From: Candidatus Moraniibacteriota bacterium
Lineage (GTDB): Bacteria; Patescibacteriota; Minisyncoccia; Moranbacterales; JAPLXC01
Assembly (NCBI GenBank): GCA_026396275.1
Contig: JAPLXC010000011.1
Location: 1 to 48,296 of the forward strand
Direction of reading: 5' to 3'
DNA: 48,296 nt
Under the pieces are notes generated by a model, which had not been told where the DNA came from, made no database searches, and worked only from the letters and a program-made list of their open reading frames with translations. The position numbers and the translations under genes were made by a program. This document shows positions 4,151 to 48,296 of the stretch, piece by piece. Numbering within the stretch: position 1 is the first letter of the stretch; each line of letters begins with the position of its first letter.

Positions 4151-4924
4151 CTATATTTCTTCCGCAATTCCTGGCACCGTTTTTTTATACACAAAAATTC
4201 CCGAAGCAAAAAACAGTAAAGTCGCTAGAATAAAAATGCCGGTCTGCCACAATTCCGGAAAGTGGTTATCAATAAGCGCTTCTTTAGTAAAATGGATGAT
4301 AAACGCTATGGGGCTTATGAGAATAATCTGCTGGACGTATTCCGGAAGCCGCTGGAGGGGATAGATTATTGGCGTGGCGTAAAAAAGTATCATAGTGAGA
4401 ACTCCCCAGATCATCAGAAGATCCCGGAATTTCACGTAAAGAGGCGCGGTAAAAAAAGAAAAGGCGAGAATTATGACATAAGTAAGGATGGAAAAAAACA
4501 GAAACAGAAGAATTGCCTCAAAACTTGGCGTGAATTGCTTCCAGATGAAAAATAACACGATAACGATAAGATTCATAATGAATATCATAGCCGAGTTGAT
4601 AGTGGAAGCCGCAATTATCGTCCAGCGGGGAACATAAATTTTAGTGACTAGCGACGACTTGGAAATCAAAGAGGCCATTCCCGCTTTGGTTCCTTCCGAG
4701 AAAAAATTAAAAAGGATTATGGCCACCAGAAGCTGGAGGGCATAATGCTTGATTCCGGAGCCGCGGGCGAAGATGGAAGAAAAAACAAAATTAAGAATGG
4801 TAAACACCAAAAGTGGATTCAAAATCGCCCACACATAGCCCAGAACCGAACCCTGATAGCGAAGCTTGAAATCGGTCTTGGCTAAAGCCCAAATTAGTTC
4901 TTTATAATTCTCATGGTGTGTCAT
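4151..4924 (-). CDS. wzm: Polysaccharide ABC exporter permease (start revised to ATG 4924)
   Basis: LAKTDFKLRYQGSVLGYVWAILNPL signature, six hydrophobic segments; TGCTATAAT 9 nt upstream of ATG 4924. Confidence 0.92.
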   Translation of the reverse strand: MTHHENYKELIWALAKTDFKLRYQGSVLGYVWAILNPLLVFTILNFVFSSIFARGSGIKHYALQLLVAIILFNFFSEGTKAGMASLISKSSLVTKIYVPRWTIIAASTINSAMIFIMNLIVIVLFFIWKQFTPSFEAILLFLFFSILTYVIILAFSFFTAPLYVKFRDLLMIWGVLTMILFYATPIIYPLQRLPEYVQQIILISPIAFIIHFTKEALIDNHFPELWQTGIFILATLLFFASGIFVYKKTVPGIAEEI

Positions 4925-5037
4925 ACTTCTGTAATTATAGCAACTTCTTGGCGAAATTAAAACATCAAAATTACCCTGATCAAAGCCATTATTTTTCTTG
5001 ATACAATACCGCAAAAATATGGCTTACTTAAGGCCCA

Positions 5038-5266
5038 ATTCCGGATATAACAATGAAAGAAAATTCAATCTAGATTGTAGTACTAAATGTAAAGACCACC
5101 TTTGGGGAGAAAGTAAAAAGTGAAATTTGCGTTTTGTTGGTTGTTCTTCGAAAAGGGGGAGACAATCAGCGGGTGCAGATGGACACTAGAGAGAGTGGAT
5201 ATAAGAGAACATTGATGAGGTGGTCTTTTAAATGGGTTTATGACCGGAGTTCAGCTCCGTTTTTTT
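5038..5266 (+). ncRNA. Candidate structured non-coding RNA (unassigned)
   Basis: 11-bp perfect long-range inverted repeat (5091-5101/5218-5228), internal G-U-rich hairpin, terminal hairpin plus T7; no ORF. Confidence 0.35.
5245..5266 (+). terminator. Intrinsic terminator-like hairpin
   Basis: CGGAG-TTCAG-CTCCG followed by seven T. Confidence 0.6.
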
Positions 5267-5273
5267 GTTGCCT

Positions 5274-5301
5274 TGCTACATGTTCCATGCTTCATGCTAC
5301 A
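5274..5301. repeat. Four 7-bp units TGCTACA/TGTTCCA/TGCTTCA/TGCTACA spanning the epimerase stop codon
   Basis: Read directly from sequence. Confidence 0.9.
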
Positions 5302-6248
5302 TGATAGTATTCCTTATACCAATCCACAAACTTCTCAATTCCCTCCTCTATCCTCGTTTTCGGCTTCCAGCCGAGTTTGCGGAGTTTTTTGACATCCGCC
5401 ACTGTCATCGGAACATCTCCGGGCTGGATGGGCAAAAATCTCTTTTTGGCTTTTTTCCCCACGGCTTTTTCAATTACCTCAATAAAACGGGTTAGTTTTT
5501 CCGGCTTGTCCGCTCCGATATTGACGATTTCGTAGCGAAAATTTTTGTCTAGCACCTTGATAGTCCCGTCAACAATATCATCAATATAAGTGAAGTCGCG
5601 CATCATTTTGCCGTAATTGTAAACGTCAATTGTCTTTCCTTCCAGTATATTTTTCGTAAACTTAAAATAGGCCATATCCGGCCGTCCCCAGGGTCCATAA
5701 ACGGTAAAAAAGCGAAGGCAGGTGATCCTAAGCCCGTATAAATGGCTGTAAACGTGCGCCAGGAGTTCGCCGGCTTTTTTGGTGGCAGCATAGGAAGAAA
5801 CGGGATTGTCCACTCTGTCGTCTTCCAAGAAAGGAACTTTTTTATTTCCGCCGTAGACCGAAGAAGAGGAAGCGAAAACAAAATTTTTAATTTTGTGCTT
5901 TACCGCCAGTTCCAGCAGATTAACCGTTCCCTTAATGTTTACTTCTTCGTAAAGAAGGGGTTTGAGAATTGAATAGCGCACTCCCGCCATCGCGGCCAGA
6001 TGGACCACTTTGTCGGGTCTTTCTTTTCTAAATACTTTCTCCAAAAAACCATAGTCCCGAATATCGCCTTTATAAAGATTGAATTTTTTCCCGGAAAGCA
6101 AGTTTTTTACCCGGTCGTGCTTAAGAGAAGGATCGTAATAATCATTAAAATTGTCGACTATCGCAACTTTGTCTCCTCTTTCAATTAGCTTTTTGGCCAG
6201 ATGGCAACCGATAAATCCAGCTCCTCCGGTGATTAAAATTTTTGCCAT
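5292..6248 (-). CDS. NAD-dependent nucleotide-sugar epimerase (UDP-glucuronate 4-epimerase-like SDR); start revised to ATG 6248
   Basis: ILITGGAGFIG, YAATKK catalytic motif, LRFFTVYGPWGRPDMA, QPGDV. Confidence 0.9.
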   Translation of the reverse strand: MAKILITGGAGFIGCHLAKKLIERGDKVAIVDNFNDYYDPSLKHDRVKNLLSGKKFNLYKGDIRDYGFLEKVFRKERPDKVVHLAAMAGVRYSILKPLLYEEVNIKGTVNLLELAVKHKIKNFVFASSSSVYGGNKKVPFLEDDRVDNPVSSYAATKKAGELLAHVYSHLYGLRITCLRFFTVYGPWGRPDMAYFKFTKNILEGKTIDVYNYGKMMRDFTYIDDIVDGTIKVLDKNFRYEIVNIGADKPEKLTRFIEVIEKAVGKKAKKRFLPIQPGDVPMTVADVKKLRKLGWKPKTRIEEGIEKFVDWYKEYYHVA

Positions 6249-41558: not shown

Positions 41559-41591
41559 CCTGCCCCGCGGGAGCGTAGCGACTTTACGGGG
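41559..41591. mobile_element. 33-bp CCTG-tagged hairpin insertion splitting a TTGACT...TAACAT promoter-like site
   Basis: Filled GAAAG[CCTGCCCCGC...ACGGGG]TCAAC versus empty GAAAG|TCAAC at 42499-42508. Confidence 0.7.
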
Positions 41592-41637
41592 TCAACTTTT
41601 AGTTACCCACTCGTTGCCCACTTGGGAAAAATAAAAA
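41591..41637. repeat. Direct repeat copy 1 flanking the protease gene
   Basis: 33 identical bp with 42503-42535, similarity extends to ~46 bp. Confidence 0.92.
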
Positions 41638-41657: not shown

Positions 41658-42449
41658 TTATTGCTTAGAAATTTTCCAGGTTATAAGTTTGTGAGACAAT
41701 GCCATAGTAGTTCCAGAAGGTATAATCTTTTCTATTCCATTTAAACTTGTTAAACCTTTCTGACAAACAATCCCTACTAACTTTCCTGAATAATTTACTA
41801 CCGGACCACCGCTAGCACCGAAAGTGGAAGCGTTGTCTATCCAGTAAGAAGCACCGTCTATACTAACACTTTTATCTAAAAATTTTGCGCTGATTTTTAT
41901 ACCATGTACAGCACCAATCATACCGCTTTTTGCCATAATCAGATTCATCGAAAATTTAAAATGATTTTCGATTTCTTTATGTTTAGCTACAAGTTCAGCA
42001 TTTCCTTCATAATTTAAACTCTTATTAAAATCTAAGGTAGGATTTATTTCATCAGGAAAACCAGCCATTATTACATCCTCCCCAACATCTGGTATACTTT
42101 CTTCCAATTCCATAAATTCGAGACCCTCTAAATTTTCAATTGGTCTTAAGATTGCCAAGTCTATCCCTAACGGCTTCACAACTCCAGAAGTCCCGACATC
42201 CAATGACACATCAGAAAAATCAATTGTATAAGGTATTGGTTGGAGGCTCCCATCATTATCAAAGGTATTAACGATAATAAGCGGCTGTTTTAATTGCTTA
42301 TATTTTTCTATAACATGGTTTGCTGTAAGTATAAAGCCTTCGCTATTGATTAAAATACCTGTTCCTGCACTAATATAATTATCTCCATCCTTTAATAGAA
42401 TCTTTCTTGTTACGTTTTTTATTTTTTTACAAATTTCAATTTTATTCAT
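41658..42449 (-). CDS. Trypsin-like serine protease (start revised to ATG 42449)
   Basis: TANHV, DLAIL, GASGGP catalytic triad; no signal peptide. Confidence 0.88.
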   Translation of the reverse strand: MNKIEICKKIKNVTRKILLKDGDNYISAGTGILINSEGFILTANHVIEKYKQLKQPLIIVNTFDNDGSLQPIPYTIDFSDVSLDVGTSGVVKPLGIDLAILRPIENLEGLEFMELEESIPDVGEDVIMAGFPDEINPTLDFNKSLNYEGNAELVAKHKEIENHFKFSMNLIMAKSGMIGAVHGIKISAKFLDKSVSIDGASYWIDNASTFGASGGPVVNYSGKLVGIVCQKGLTSLNGIEKIIPSGTTMALSHKLITWKISKQ

Positions 42450-42502
42450 ATACTTTTTAAAAAAATTAATAACCTTCCCCACTCTATTTCGCTTGCACGA
42501 AA

Positions 42503-42548
42503 GTCAACTTTTAGTTACCCACTCGTTGCCCACTTAGGGAAATAAAAA
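42503..42548. repeat. Direct repeat copy 2
   Basis: GTCAACTTTTAGTTACCCACTCGTTGCCCACTT. Confidence 0.92.
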
Positions 42549-42565
42549 CCCCTGCTTGGGGCGGG

Positions 42566-43504
42566 TTATTGAATCTTATTTCTTATTTTGTTCCAGAGCT
42601 CAAGTTCATCAGAGAGTAATTGCCTAACTACTAAATCCGTAATATTTCCGATAATTGCAAACTCAGTGTGAATTTTAAAATCATCAAGGTTCAACCATTT
42701 GTCTTGCGGATATTTTTCAGGAAAAATATGCGCGATTAAGTGTCTATGAGATTGAGTTATCCATTTATAAAAATATCCAAATGCTTTTCCGTCTAGCTCT
42801 TTGTATTTAGGATAAGCAATAGCCCAAACTAGCGTATCTTGATCTATTTTTTTTTGAGGCCTTTTAATTTCAGGATATTTTTTTATATACTCATCAGCAT
42901 CTCTAAATGCCTCTCTTCTTTCATAAAAACCTTCTAAAATTTTATAAAAACAAAAGAAACGATAGAACGGACTAGGACTATTTCTTCCCTCTCTATACAA
43001 TGAGAGAATAGCTTTAAACTTATCATCAAATTCTAGCCCCGCTGGTAGTGCAAATTCCTCTGGAGCAGCATATTGTGGAAAAGCTTCTCGAGCTGTTTGA
43101 TGTTTTAAATCAACTACAACAACACCGAAAATGGAAAGTGGTGAAGCAGAAGCAAATGTTATAAAACTAATTAAATTAGAAAGGTTATTGTATGTTCTTA
43201 CCAGAGCCTCGATAGAAGAATTTGATTTTATTTTAAATCTTATGCGCCCCAATCTTTCTTCTTCATTTTTTTCAAAGAGCATTGTTATTTCCTCCTTCTT
43301 ATCTCCTTTTATCTCGGTTTGAGTTTTAGTCTCATTTTCTTTTAACACAAATGGGCTGTCAAATTTTTTCCTTCGGTCTGGATCTTCCAATGTAAAAATT
43401 ACTTCGAATTCTCTTTTCGAAGTGTCTTTTTTTGAAGCATCCGATTTTATTAAATCGCTATCCCCTTTATCCCAGAGGGCATAGCCAAAATGGGGAATCC
43501 ACAT
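42566..43504 (-). CDS. MauJ/ApeA-like protein with C-terminal HEPN-type RxxxxH motif (start revised to ATG 43504)
   Basis: LYREG...YRFFCFYKILE and RHLIAH; TATAAT 6 nt upstream of ATG. Confidence 0.6.
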   Translation of the reverse strand: MWIPHFGYALWDKGDSDLIKSDASKKDTSKREFEVIFTLEDPDRRKKFDSPFVLKENETKTQTEIKGDKKEEITMLFEKNEEERLGRIRFKIKSNSSIEALVRTYNNLSNLISFITFASASPLSIFGVVVVDLKHQTAREAFPQYAAPEEFALPAGLEFDDKFKAILSLYREGRNSPSPFYRFFCFYKILEGFYERREAFRDADEYIKKYPEIKRPQKKIDQDTLVWAIAYPKYKELDGKAFGYFYKWITQSHRHLIAHIFPEKYPQDKWLNLDDFKIHTEFAIIGNITDLVVRQLLSDELELWNKIRNKIQ

Positions 43505-43581
43505 ATCATTATTATATCCCAAAATAAAAACAAAAAACACCATTTAAGGCGTCTTTAAAAAAATACTAACCTATTTTGTTT

Positions 43582-43800
43582 TTACCTATCCTCCACTCCC
43601 TGTCTTGCTCCGCTCATCGTATCTTGGGTTTTATTGTATGATTCGACAACTAAAAGTATAACTATAAGCAAAAAAATGCCAAGAATTATTTTCCAAACTA
43701 TTGATATTCCTCTTTTGTTTTTGCCCAGCCACTCTCCGCAATGTTTACATTTAGCTGAGTCATCCTGTATTTCTTCGGCACAATACGGGCATTTTTTCAT
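43582..43800 (-). CDS. Zinc-ribbon plus single-TM small protein
   Basis: CPYC...CKHC followed by a hydrophobic helix. Confidence 0.75.
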   Translation of the reverse strand: MKKCPYCAEEIQDDSAKCKHCGEWLGKNKRGISIVWKIILGIFLLIVILLVVESYNKTQDTMSGARQGVEDR

Positions 43801-43952
43801 TTTTTTACTTTATCCAATTACTGAATAAAATGTACCACAAAAATGACGCCTAGGAAAGTGGAGCAGACCAACACAAAAAACTCCTAGAATAAAAGTTTTT
43901 TATACAAAAAGTCCGCTTGGGACGAGATTAGAAAGTTGACCCATCGGCATCC

Positions 43953-44705
43953 TCACTTATCCCAAGGATAAACCAATGCTCCCTTGTCAGTAATTGTTTT
44001 ATATAAAGTACCAAAATATATTTCATTTAATCGGTTTATACTCTTTTTGTCCTCAACAATTTTCTTTTTCCATTTTCTTCTGATGTCCTTATACACCAAC
44101 CTATATAATAGTTCAAGCTTTTCTACGAATTGTTCGTCCTTCGATCTAGCTAGCGTATCTATCATAGAAAGCCTATCGATATCTTCATCAGTATACCTTG
44201 TGAAATGAACGTGCGACCCGCGAACCTTAATGTATCCGCTAAAAGCTGAGGTTACCAAAGTGCCCAATTTCTTAGTTGCCGAAGAGACTTTGGATTTAAT
44301 TTTTGATTTTTTATAAGCTCGTTCAATAATAGTTAAATATGCTAACATTCTTTGTTGTAAAATATAAATCTCATTTAAATAATTTTCAATGTGGTATTTA
44401 AAATAGACATATTTTGATATTCCTTTTTTTTGAAAAGGAAAAACATCTATATATATCGGGATGTTTTGTAATGCTTCATAAGAATTAGCTATCTCAGAGA
44501 ATAGTCTAAATAACTTCATAGCAAATTCGTCCTCTCGGCTCAATTTTTTTTGCGTCAAAGCTTTTGGTCCGTCTCTGTCAAATAAAACATTTCCCAAAAC
44601 TTCAGCCAGCTCCTTATCCTCATCTTTGTGGCTATCTATCCTATCTCTCGAAAAATCAAATACTAAATCAGCATATTGTTTAGTTTTACCAGTATAAAAA
44701 TCCAT
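43953..44705 (-). CDS. HEPN-domain protein (Cthe_2314-like)
   Basis: KYHIENYLNEIY and RGSHVH (Rx4H); family from recollection of motif, unverified. Confidence 0.55.
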   Translation of the reverse strand: MDFYTGKTKQYADLVFDFSRDRIDSHKDEDKELAEVLGNVLFDRDGPKALTQKKLSREDEFAMKLFRLFSEIANSYEALQNIPIYIDVFPFQKKGISKYVYFKYHIENYLNEIYILQQRMLAYLTIIERAYKKSKIKSKVSSATKKLGTLVTSAFSGYIKVRGSHVHFTRYTDEDIDRLSMIDTLARSKDEQFVEKLELLYRLVYKDIRRKWKKKIVEDKKSINRLNEIYFGTLYKTITDKGALVYPWDK

Positions 44706-44832
44706 TAAAATATAACTTCAAAAAAAATTTAACATTCCTACTTTTTGTATTATACCAGATTTTATCGTTCTGAAATAAAATGTTGAGAAATAAAAACACA
44801 AAAACAGGGTTTCCCCTGCTTCCATAATTTTG

Positions 44833-45005
44833 TTCAGCATCGTAATTTTATGCGATTAGTCCCCGCCCGCCATCGCTACGCTTCAGGCGTTGCGGGCAGG
44901 CTTTTAAAGTCTATGCATACCCTTGTATAAAAGATACAACTATCAATTACTTGGCTTGATTAGGCCTTTGACGTGTCTTGAATAAATTCAAATTTCGAAA
45001 AGATG
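44833..45005 (-). ncRNA. Structured RNA candidate, copy A (interrupted by a hairpin element)
   Basis: Homologous to 46607-46745 with three compensatory base-pair changes; followed by terminator-like hairpin 44795-44820; strand inferred. Confidence 0.6.
44866..44900. mobile_element. 35-bp CAGG-tagged hairpin insertion
   Basis: CCCGCCATCGCTACGCTTCAGGCGTTGCGGG-CAGG; absent from copy B. Confidence 0.65.
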
Positions 45006-45046
45006 AGCATATCATGCAGTTGCGCAAAATTACGAATAATTGGCTT

Positions 45047-46540
45047 TTAACTAAATAGCTTGACTAGCCACCCAAACAAACTTACGCTCCGCTCTCTTTT
45101 AGCAACAAATGCTTGCAATTTATTGTTCTGTTGAGTGAACAAATTAATTTGCTTCTGTAATACAGATCTTACAGCAGGATCGGTTATTAGATTCGCTACA
45201 TCAGTCAGAGTCTTAATTCTTGCTTGGTTTGCAACTATCTCAGCCTTTAAAGATTTAATGCCTTTATATTTTGGCCCGATAAGAAATTTTGCAAATCCAC
45301 TCCTGCTACTGATTTCATTAACTGCGTTTTCAATTTTTGCCTGAGAATCATCCTGCCCACGCACATTCATTAGTATTTTCTGCCCAATACCTCCTACCAG
45401 CTCCGCTATGGTTCTCAAATTATGGATGAAATAAGCGACATGCTTTTTATAAGAACCAGCCACTGCTTCTTTATTGCTATCATCAGTATTATTAATATTA
45501 TTATTTTCTTCGAGGGTCATCTCAAGCAACTTTTCCAATCGTTCTAATTTCTGTTCGGCTGATTCCAGAAGGCTCGCCGCTTCCTGAGGATTGGTAGCCA
45601 TCATTAGCTCAAATCCGGAGGCCGTAACCCTTACTTCGCTGAGAATATTCTTGAATGGTTCTGCAGCAATTCCGCTAGAGGCTAAATCATTTATTTTTAA
45701 TTCAACATTTCGGATTTTGGAATTGAGCTCGCCAATAGTCCCTGCAATTCTTTTCCTTAAATCACTGATTATTCCAGTATTCTTTTCGGTTAATTTTTCA
45801 TACTCTTCAATCTTTTCTGTTCCTTTGAGTAAGTCGTCTTTCAAACGCCTCACGAAAGATCCCATCTGATCAGAATTTCCAGCCAGCACGTTGAATGTAT
45901 CAAGGAATTTATTCAATAGAGGATCGGCAATGCTATTGGGATATTTTATTGTATGATCTATTTCGCTCCATCCTTCTTCAAAAATAGTTCTAACTTGTAT
46001 TTCAGCAATATAGGGATCTCTGCCAGGCCTTGACTGAATCAGGTAATGAACCGATCTATAACCATGGGGATGCAATTCAACATTACATTTATACTTTTTG
46101 TATTCCTCAACACAGGGACCTGCATCTCCTTCCCTGATATAAGCTAATGGTTGCTCGTGCAAATCCCAATTATCCTCTATAAATTTATGGATAAACACCC
46201 AGTCTTCCTTAAATAGATGAATGGCTCTTATTCCGATTAAATCTGTTATCAAAGATTTATAGTTGTGAATCGTAATCTCGCGCTTTGGATCTTCAATTTT
46301 CTTTCTTATAATCTTGGCTAAAAGATGTTCGGAGTCTTTTATCCTATATCTGACTGAATGCACTATGTCCAAAGTATGCAGTTTTTCCTCTATATACCTG
46401 GCAATAAGATTTAATTCTTTTTTGATTTTTTTATAATCTTTTTCCATGGACTGCAAATCTTCCCACTTTAAATTTGTGGATTCAAAATCCTTCTCCGATA
46501 TGTTGAATCTTGCTAAAAAATTATTCAGATCATCATTCAT
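45047..46540 (-). CDS. RelA/SpoT-type nucleotidyltransferase (small alarmone synthetase-like) with ~270-aa helical C-terminal extension
   Basis: RIKD...K, DLIGIR, GYRSVHY, EIQVRT, W.E..H...Y; no HD hydrolase domain. Confidence 0.85.
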   Translation of the reverse strand: MNDDLNNFLARFNISEKDFESTNLKWEDLQSMEKDYKKIKKELNLIARYIEEKLHTLDIVHSVRYRIKDSEHLLAKIIRKKIEDPKREITIHNYKSLITDLIGIRAIHLFKEDWVFIHKFIEDNWDLHEQPLAYIREGDAGPCVEEYKKYKCNVELHPHGYRSVHYLIQSRPGRDPYIAEIQVRTIFEEGWSEIDHTIKYPNSIADPLLNKFLDTFNVLAGNSDQMGSFVRRLKDDLLKGTEKIEEYEKLTEKNTGIISDLRKRIAGTIGELNSKIRNVELKINDLASSGIAAEPFKNILSEVRVTASGFELMMATNPQEAASLLESAEQKLERLEKLLEMTLEENNNINNTDDSNKEAVAGSYKKHVAYFIHNLRTIAELVGGIGQKILMNVRGQDDSQAKIENAVNEISSRSGFAKFLIGPKYKGIKSLKAEIVANQARIKTLTDVANLITDPAVRSVLQKQINLFTQQNNKLQAFVAKRERSVSLFGWLVKLFS

Positions 46541-46574
46541 AGTGAGTTAACTATAACACAGCTTAGCGCAACAC

Positions 46575-46600
46575 AAAAACGCCATTTACAGGCGTTTCTT
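46575..46600 (-). terminator. Terminator-like hairpin between RNA copy B and the RelA/SpoT-like gene
   Basis: AAACGCC-TGTAAAT-GGCGTTT followed by TTGTGTT. Confidence 0.65.
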
Positions 46601-46606
46601 ATATTC

Positions 46607-46745
46607 TTCAGCAAATCGAAATCTTTTGCGATTAGTCCTAAAGAGTCTATGCATACCCCTTGTACAAAAGGTACGGCTACCGATTATTTGGCTCGGCTAA
46701 GCCCTTGGCAGTTCTGTTAGTAAGCTAACAGTTCGACCGCCGGAC
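46607..46745 (-). ncRNA. Structured RNA candidate, copy B
   Basis: See copy A; 11-bp closing stem 46609-46620/46732-46742 with G-U pairs on the minus strand. Confidence 0.6.
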
Positions 46746-46828
46746 AATAATCAATGCTTCCCATTATATCCTATGAGGGATATAACTTTTACTAGGACAC
46801 ATTTCTCGACTATTGTCAATTTCTCCCT

Positions 46829-48180
<1,352 letters not shown>

Positions 48181-48296
48181 TGAAGAAGAGATTTTAAGAG
48201 AGAGTCAAAAAAGTGTCATGACCAATATTCTTAAAAATATTGATTCTATTTATAAACAAATTAAAAAAAACGAAGAAACAACAGGAACAGAATATT

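Follow-up and report, generated by a model that had tools for sequence, protein, structure and literature searches.

According to our analysis, the repeated structured RNA on contig JAPLXC010000011.1 of Candidatus Moraniibacteriota bacterium (assembly GCA_026396275.1; the whole stretch of 48,296 nt is hereafter called the window) is probably the 3' trailer of a 16S rRNA gene that is used as a landing pad for gene cassettes, and not a regulator of the toxin-like genes beside it. Two copies of the repeat, A and B, had been recognized in a first-pass annotation made from the sequence alone. It placed copy B before a RelA/SpoT-like gene and copy A before a gene called HEPN, and it suggested a new RNA that acts as a shared antitoxin or phage sensor, as an attenuator, or as the mobilisation signal of the cassettes.

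Copy B directly continues the 16S rRNA gene. Rfam places this gene at 46831-48296 on the minus strand (SSU_rRNA_bacteria, 1237 bits, model positions 142-1533), and the homology of the repeat to its relatives runs on the same strand from 46840, contiguous with the 16S 3' end. The same arrangement is found in two of the related loci (L numbers below), L028 and L003. The minus-strand order in the window is 16S, a 497-aa RelA/SpoT open reading frame (ORF) and a 250-aa ORF. The element had been described as placed before toxin genes; this does not hold, since copy B is the 3' continuation of 16S and the corresponding module of relatives pairs with a 16S leader. The 3' 1390 model positions of the window's 16S gene are present, and the gene carries an insert and extends past the window end. 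At 48180-48296 the 16S homology stops at about model position 150 and is followed by AT-rich, non-rRNA sequence to the window end, which is probably one of the insertions frequent in 16S genes of the Candidate Phyla Radiation (CPR).

The pairing between module and leader is found in L028, a locus obtained via the recombinase family described below, where the module follows a 16S gene with a LAGLIDADG-encoding insert. In L028 the leader, some 220 nt before the start of the 16S gene, consists of TCACAATTTTTTGCGATTAGTCC, a hairpin and GAGTCTATT. Its stretch from TTTTTTGCGATTAGTCC to GAGTCTATT is the complement of the module 3' end, GAUAGACUC..GGACUAAUCGCAUAAGA (also GAUAGACUC..GGACUAAUCGCAUAAGAUUGUGA), and the duplex reaches -43.8 kcal/mol, compared with -28.6 +/- 3.4 kcal/mol for shuffled tails. 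Because the 3' end of the module complements the 16S leader in this locus, we regard the module as a 16S 3' trailer that closes a leader-trailer helix. A long leader-trailer helix enclosing 16S in the precursor is the usual RNase III-type processing substrate, and judging from rRNA (rrn) operons in general the trailer would be part of such a substrate.

Inserts encoding LAGLIDADG endonucleases lie near the 16S 3' end in both L016 (3968-4755) and L028 (about 4400-5700); of the two, only the L016 insert is a group I intron by Rfam. It follows GUCGUAA (near E. coli position 1506), with a 3' exon of ~46 nt behind it, and the Rfam 16S match stops short of the true 3' exon.

The part of the element seen in the first-pass annotation corresponds to the 3' two-thirds of a ~215-nt minus-strand module, whose 5' domain had gone unnoticed. 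For copy B the repeat itself is real, but the extent assigned to it was too short: homology with relatives spans 46620-46840 and reaches the 16S 3' end. This full trailer module, which comprises copy B and the 5' domain (46620-46840, minus strand; nhmmer 221 bits, model 1-216), contains eight internal helices. A scan for the element pattern over one genome per species returned two contigs of metagenome-assembled genomes (MAGs), and a looser pattern returned 13 metagenome loci. In all 15 public loci the homology starts exactly at CACCTCCTTTCTAGGGAG, ~100 nt further 5' than the limit drawn originally. A profile search over all fetched loci gave 21 distinct full-length copies, with copy A of the window as the sole partial one. 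The core CACCTCCTTTCTAGGGAG (46823-46840, minus strand) is composed of the last 12 nt of 16S and 6 further nt. It occurs once in the window and is (near-)invariant across the 21 copies; every homologous locus has its junction fixed at this point, to which four kinds of left flank are joined. The 3' domain of copy B (46618-46742, minus strand; covariance model R1, 124 bits) is built of the variable hairpin, a hairpin with the loop GCCAAAUAAU, the UUGUACAA hairpin and the closing strand AUAGACUC..GGACUAAUCGCAAAAG.

The rho-independent terminator that comes after the module, on the same strand, differs from copy to copy. Those noted earlier in the window were confirmed as rho-independent and minus-strand: AAACGCCUGUAAAUGGCGUUUUUG behind copy B (46575-46598, from the sequence) and CAGGGGAAACCCUG with a U-run behind copy A (44797-44826, terminator scan). 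The described likeness of A and B was likewise reproduced. Both copies contain the identical 12- and 15-nt blocks TGCGATTAGTCC (44851 and 46627) and AGTCTATGCATACCC (44908 and 46644), the 15-mer occurring twice against an expectation of 0.05, and they share a gapless 50-nt block (44923-44972 and 46660-46709) with 13 differences, every one a transition. ARAGORN found two tRNAs in the window (Gln and Thr), both away from the repeat.

The structure of the RNA was tested on 18 diverse aligned copies with a model of 64 pairs in nine helix segments; alignments with the partners slid by 1-3 columns and 500 shuffles served as controls. Paired cells amounted to 90.5%, compared with 41-46% in the slid controls. 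Changes on both sides occurred at 36 of the 64 pairs, and none of the 500 shuffles reached the observed values. The claim of a structured, covarying RNA was thus borne out, and so was its assignment to the minus strand, given 125 G-U cells, pairing of 90.5% in sense versus 81% in antisense, and a minus-strand terminator after each copy. Two of the helices proposed from copies A and B alone were recovered in the larger alignment. One is the stem UCAA/UUGA in A versus CCGA/UCGG in B with the loop GCCAARUAAU (helix 8), whose pairs change on both sides in 4-10 of the 18 members, and the other is the sequence-variable hairpin (helix 7), in which 7 of 7 pairs covary. A proposed stem changing from GTAT/ATAC to GTAC/GTAC proved not to exist; the true helix is CAUACCUCUU/AAGGGUAUG with the loop GUAC, as revealed by divergent members with GUGCUC/GAGCAC and GGUGUG/CACACC. 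The promoter-like TTGACA at ~46810 is a strand of a covarying helix (UUGACC/GGUCAA in L002), and a TTGACA...TATAAT promoter inside copy B was rejected because its bases are strands of covarying helices.

Within the core (46823-46837), the anti-Shine-Dalgarno sequence CCUCCU can form a 6-bp hairpin with AGGGAG, the first six bases of the trailer. This helix 1 is paired in 99% of cells without variation, and the invariant pairing is therefore beyond the reach of covariation. Going by the sequence, it would mask the anti-Shine-Dalgarno in unprocessed 16S.

The module belongs to no known family, as had been suspected: Rfam gave no match on it, either at gathering thresholds (21 loci) or at E <= 10 (E-value scans of 42000-48296 in the window and of 8400-9000 in L014), and no covariance model of riboswitches, HEARO or other Rfam families matched it. 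RNase P RNA was considered for the resemblance of GCGAAAGUCC...GGACUAAUC to the strands of helix P4. It was ruled out by the lack of an Rfam match at E <= 10 in a 600-nt search, by the absence of a P3 between the strands, and by the 5' strand being rrn leader. tmRNA, 6S, SRP and Y RNA were dismissed as well, with no tmRNA found by ARAGORN in the window and no Rfam match on the element. A search of the available literature for elements targeting the 16S 3' end or for CPR 16S trailer RNA found no description, which is weak evidence of novelty.

The gene downstream of the module is, in 16 of the 21 distinct copies, that of a Xer-like tyrosine recombinase (~310 aa), which starts ~20-30 nt past the terminator. 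A full module lies directly upstream of the recombinase in L002, L005-L011, L014, L015, L022, L023 and L028/L030. The recombinase scores best against the XerA, XerC and XerD models, yet under their cut-offs, and reaches 89 bits against the integron-integrase cut-off of 265. Its family comprises 1075 proteins at E <= 1e-40, and members 65-99% identical occur in MAGs labelled as different phyla and on contigs of 38-58% GC.

Most copies have no 16S on their left according to Rfam, and the left flank is instead a short leader-like arm. A sigma-70-type promoter and the box TTAACAATTTAAT lie in this arm, together with a 5' strand able to pair with the 3' end of the adjoining module; the best of these duplexes reach -22 to -29 kcal/mol. 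Arm and module are joined at CACCTCC, and the unit as a whole amounts to an rrn operon without 16S. The loci differ in what is joined at this point. L028 and L030 share an identical module, recombinase (P0062) and cargo (a CpXC protein, a primase and others), but have 16S and a leader-like arm, respectively, as left flank. L030 in turn shares its arm with L001, where it is joined to another module lineage. At the same point L012 has a flank of yet another kind, a gene judged Nif3-like by inspection of its sequence. Of the three cores of L016 (Moranbacteria), the first coincides with the 16S end, the second is partial and precedes xer, and the third, 7.4 kb further on, has a leader-like arm. 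Between them lie xer, an IS1595 transposase, a Rep gene and another integrase, and the duplicated stretch of ~300 nt extends beyond the terminator. Two units with cargo between them are found on one contig in L001 and in L014/L015. Because of the flank swap between L028 and L030, the arm shared by L001 and L030, the flank of L012 and the triple cores of L016, we take the junction CACCTCC to be, say, the putative crossover point. The simplest reading of these arrangements would be a family of integrative elements that use a copied 16S end with its trailer as their attachment (att) region.

In the window, the position behind copy B is occupied by the gene of a small alarmone synthetase (SAS; 45047-46540, minus strand). 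Its 497-aa product has an N-terminal RelA/SpoT domain and a helical tail of ~300 aa, and the earlier RelA/SpoT assignment was confirmed by Pfam (PF04607, 5.4e-18) and by a YwaC/RelP-like match in the PDB. Homologues of 72-90% identity occur on contigs labelled Nealsonbacteria, Parcubacteria and Peregrinibacteria, and homologues of 54-56% identity on Pacebacteria-labelled ones; the former range across lineages suggests a recent horizontal spread of the SAS cassette. The left end of the cassette consists of terminator B and the promoter-like stretch TTGCGCTAA..GTGTTATAGTTAA that follows it, and is also found upstream of the SAS gene of L038. The SAS cassette thus recurs at a trailer: in L038 an 86%-identical SAS is bordered by a complete, core-bearing trailer on one side and by a trailer copy truncated at its 5' end on the other, as in the window. 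Both L038 trailer copies are of the short, L016-like type; the repeats are therefore a mark of the insertion site rather than a sequence required by SAS.

Copy A (44833-45005, minus strand; nhmmer model 105-195, E 2e-16; 60.9 bits with R1 at 44896-44997) is a 5'-truncated copy of the trailer that holds the 3' domain only. It begins at the variable hairpin, has neither core nor 5' domain and is about 25-35% diverged from B. According to the alignments, a GC-rich hairpin of 42 nt, found in no other member of the family, is inserted between AGACU and GGACUAAUC (44862-44903, minus strand). It was considered as a candidate member of the REP family of the genome; the one match found, at 5983, covers 11 nt. 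Copy A resembles the L022-type lineage (..CAAGACACNUCAAAGGC..) rather than B and is therefore no recent duplicate of B, and terminator A resembles the post-trailer terminator of the L016 16S, GACAGGGATAAAACCCTGTTTTTG. Short contigs from two sequencing runs (X2 and X3) join 44812 to 46607, so that the trailer end, a hairpin like terminator A and the flank of the 250-aa ORF follow each other without SAS and without a second copy; in X3, SAS is followed by only the last ~20-30 nt of a trailer. These contigs (117-321 nt, from other strains) are consistent with an insertion/deletion polymorphism that comprises SAS and one repeat. Repeats of the site are present in three cases, namely A and B in the window, the three cores in L016, and the full and truncated copies in L038.

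Taking these observations together with what is known of rrn operons, we posit the following course of events. The repeated element would belong to a 16S rRNA operon that stands alone and would be its 3' external transcribed spacer (trailer), opening with the last 12 nt of 16S and folding into its eight covarying helices. Its last ~30 nt (AUAGACUC..GGACUAAUCGCAAAAG) would pair with the operon leader into a helix enclosing 16S, and on this model ..TTTTGCGATTAGTCC.. and GAGTCTAT should be present in the window's 16S leader, ahead of the 16S 5' end. Copy B would serve the window's 16S as its functional trailer, with transcription running on from 16S to terminator B. Mobile elements may carry the Xer-like recombinase right behind their own copy of the module, preceded by the 16S-less leader-like arm; upon integration at the core, the trailer copy of the element would replace that of the host and the old trailer would be displaced. 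SAS, with its own terminator and promoter, would be a recombinase-less cassette at the trailer 3' end, and copy A a diverged and truncated trailer copy left at the distal SAS boundary. Two routes to this state may be envisaged. Either a larger element integrated and a later deletion took its recombinase, arm and core, or a cassette without recombinase was inserted at the 3' end of the trailer; the insertion itself may have been site-specific, homologous or illegitimate. The data show directly the RNA family with its structure, the leader pairing in L028, the linkage to the recombinase, the fixed junction and the recurrence of the cassette; RNA processing, the mechanism of recombination and the ancestry of the two copies, i.e. 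which of A and B came first, are what we infer here.

A wider reading, which we put forward tentatively and hold to be somewhat short of an even chance, is that mobile elements widespread in CPR bacteria and their neighbours integrate at the universally conserved 16S 3' end with a 16S-less rrn operon as att region, and that the site grows into a defence island. In this att unit a promoter and a boxA-like leader would be combined with the 5' helix strand, the 12 terminal nt of 16S and the complete structured trailer. The host 16S would thereby receive a working replacement trailer, and the displaced trailer would still be transcribed and folded from the leader of the element. Such a site may gather defence or toxin cassettes like SAS, so that the island would be anchored on the rRNA gene.

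Several points weigh against the trailer and landing-pad interpretation or its wider form. A tblastn search of the window found no recombinase, and the window contains neither a second core nor a leader-like arm. It also stops within the 16S gene, and pairing of copy B with its own leader would follow from the likeness to L028. Expression is documented by a single low-depth metatranscriptome contig from a relative, which covers 46733-46837. Copies A and B belong to different module lineages, and the contigs with the "empty" form are just 117-151 nt long and come from other strains. The box TTAACAATTTAAT is only a putative counterpart of the rrn boxA. The 16S-less units might also be old chromosomal pseudo-operons rather than att regions. 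No close relative of the recombinase turned up in the plasmid and phage collections scanned, the element was absent from the viral contigs, and no circular contig was recovered. A 16S-less unit ~88% identical to B does exist on a 343-nt contig of similar depth in the best-matching run, but it is not assignable to this genome.

The doubt about old pseudo-operons can be extended to a purely chromosomal explanation, in which the 16S-less units are an old rrn pseudo-operon, the recombinase is an adjacent housekeeping Xer gene, A and B arose by local duplication and decay, and SAS arrived by illegitimate or homology-facilitated recombination. The resemblance of the left arm to a true 16S leader, the affinity of the recombinase to XerA, XerC and XerD, the 16S-trailer-xer synteny in L016 and L028, and the lack of close recombinase relatives in the plasmid and phage collections would all fit. 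We nevertheless consider it unlikely, as L028 and L030 have an identical module, recombinase and cargo in different contexts with the junction at one and the same nucleotide, and one arm is joined to two modules (L001 and L030). Contigs with several units and cargo between them (L001, L014/L015, L016), the presence of primase, Rep, IS, second-integrase and defence genes among the cargo, and recombinases 65-99% identical in MAGs labelled as different phyla and at 38-58% GC likewise speak against chromosomal housekeeping features. Still less probable, in our view, is an independent non-coding RNA gene that works with the adjacent recombinase, for example as a guide or scaffold for the 16S 3' end, with the fusion to 16S as a consequence of integration. 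The 16S-less units have a strong promoter of their own, a closing helix and a terminator and always lie immediately 5' of the recombinase, their RNA includes the exact target sequence CACCUCCUUUCU, and the covariation attests to selection on RNA structure. The L028 module, however, pairs with a genuine 16S leader, which is enough to account for the structure and conservation of the module. Elements inserted in tRNA or tmRNA genes offer an analogy: they bring along a 3' piece of their target RNA that does not serve as a guide. An RNA-guided tyrosine recombinase is not known.

The reading of the first-pass annotation, an RNA antitoxin, phage sensor or attenuator of the SAS and HEPN-like genes after the manner of type III toxin-antitoxin or AbiF-like systems, has very little probability left and is already largely refuted by the table of gene neighbours. 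What speaks for it is the terminator between each copy and the next gene, SAS as a plausible toxin or defence gene, and the second case of SAS beside a trailer copy in L038. When downstream genes were tabulated, however, a toxin-like neighbour was found in the window only; other copies precede the recombinase, DUF5320 or DUF134 genes, or a histidine kinase. The HEPN identity of the 250-aa ORF (43953-44705, minus strand) could not be confirmed, with no match in Pfam, NCBIfam, PADLOC or the PDB beyond a marginal Cas11a hit in PADLOC (E 0.069). The ORF belongs to a small uncharacterised family of 42 homologues without Pfam domains, and those of L034-L037 lie among housekeeping genes with no module nearby. 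Likewise, the element is absent in two of three SAS homologue contexts examined (L039 and L040/L041), and the flanking copies of L038 are of a different, short trailer type, which points to an association with the site and not with the RNA sequence. Tandem Repeats Finder detected no tandem array of ~34-36-nt repeats like that of ToxI, but just a TAT run and a weak 11-nt repeat within the SAS ORF. No ToxN/AbiQ/CptN-type partner was found and PADLOC had no match for the SAS protein; downstream there was no Abi_2 or HEPN match in Pfam, and no Rfam match at E <= 10. The roles of shared antitoxin, phage sensor and attenuator are thus not upheld, with copy B directly continuing 16S and most copies preceding a recombinase. 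Of the options offered originally, the mobilisation signal comes closest, in that the trailer appears to be the insertion site of cassettes and recombinase elements and copy A a cassette boundary.

The trailer interpretation can be set beside several known systems. Like the 3' external transcribed spacer or processing helix of an rRNA operon, the module abuts the mature 16S 3' end and shares its strand, complements the operon leader with its 3' end (L028) and ends at a terminator. Unlike usual rRNA trailers, it is unusually long (~215 nt), has eight covarying helices and conserved loops, is kept as a family across many contigs, has 16S-less copies with their own promoter and stands outside Rfam. 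Genomic islands and prophages that target the 3' end of a tRNA or tmRNA gene, and bring a replacement for it, share with it the tyrosine recombinase beside a segment of an RNA gene, the single fixed junction in a stable-RNA gene, the supply of everything 3' of the presumed crossover by the element, the direct repeats of the 3' part of the RNA that appear to bound the insert, and the tandem arrays (L001, L016). The target here differs, being the 16S 3' end and trailer, as does the other arm, which mimics an operon leader with promoter, boxA-like box and 5' helix strand; recombination would be the inferred step in our case. Integron arrays and Xer-dependent modules (IMEX, pdif) are similar in having single-gene, recombinase-less cassettes beside a fixed site (here SAS, and a protease gene with 46-nt repeats), a Xer- or integron-like recombinase at the site in relatives, and defence- or toxin-like cargo. 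In contrast to integrons, no IntI-type recombinase was identified, the repeats are 100-140-nt pieces of rRNA trailer, and the window is without recombinase. With ToxIN and AbiF the order of RNA, terminator and toxin-like gene is shared, but there are no tandem RNA repeats and no ToxN, AbiQ or Abi_2 toxin, and the RNA is part of an rRNA operon and mostly stands before recombinase genes.

Further features were observed around the cassettes of the window. A trypsin-like protease gene (41658-42482, minus strand; Pfam Trypsin_2, PADLOC LmuA-like) lies between 46-nt direct repeats at 41591-41636 and 42503-42548 that are 91% identical. With these repeat boundaries it looks like a second single-gene cassette of the same island. 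Its 274-aa product showed no homology to the 274-aa and 356-aa recombinase-adjacent genes of L023 and L022. Between a zinc-ribbon ORF and a MauJ/ApeA-like ORF, the terminator AAAGACGCCUUAAAUGGUGUUUUUUG (43533-43556, minus strand) nearly equals terminator B and the post-module terminator of L001, so that a recurrent "family" of terminators is seen at cassette boundaries.

Around the recombinase units of other loci, a conserved gene of 84-112 aa encoding a coiled coil (MAKNKE.TI.ELA...RITILEKKVALA) is located upstream of the leader-like arm in L006, L014 and L015, about 110-460 nt from the core, and may mark the right end of one type of element. Behind the recombinase of L022-L027 and L032 there is often an opposite-strand gene along with another tyrosine recombinase in convergent orientation, and the cargo around them contains many defence-type domains (SMODS, NACHT, AbiEii, PIN/AbrB, RNase_H_2/PDDEXK). 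L023-L027 have the module and recombinase in contigs of 50-58% GC, beside CoA-transferase genes and a tRNA; the family therefore seems wider than the low-GC CPR genomes.

The RNA described here is a hitherto undescribed, highly structured family of 16S trailers and not a new antitoxin. Its hairpin between the anti-Shine-Dalgarno and AGGGAG suggests, on the face of the sequence, a way in which immature 30S subunits could be held inactive. If the integration model is true, the 16S 3' end would join the tRNA and tmRNA genes as a target of tyrosine recombinases, with an unusual att region that mimics an operon. This would also mean that metagenome contigs adjacent to 16S may have a chimeric origin, a point to bear in mind in binning and when 16S sequences are assigned to genomes, and it would explain the clustering of defence genes behind 16S in these reduced genomes.

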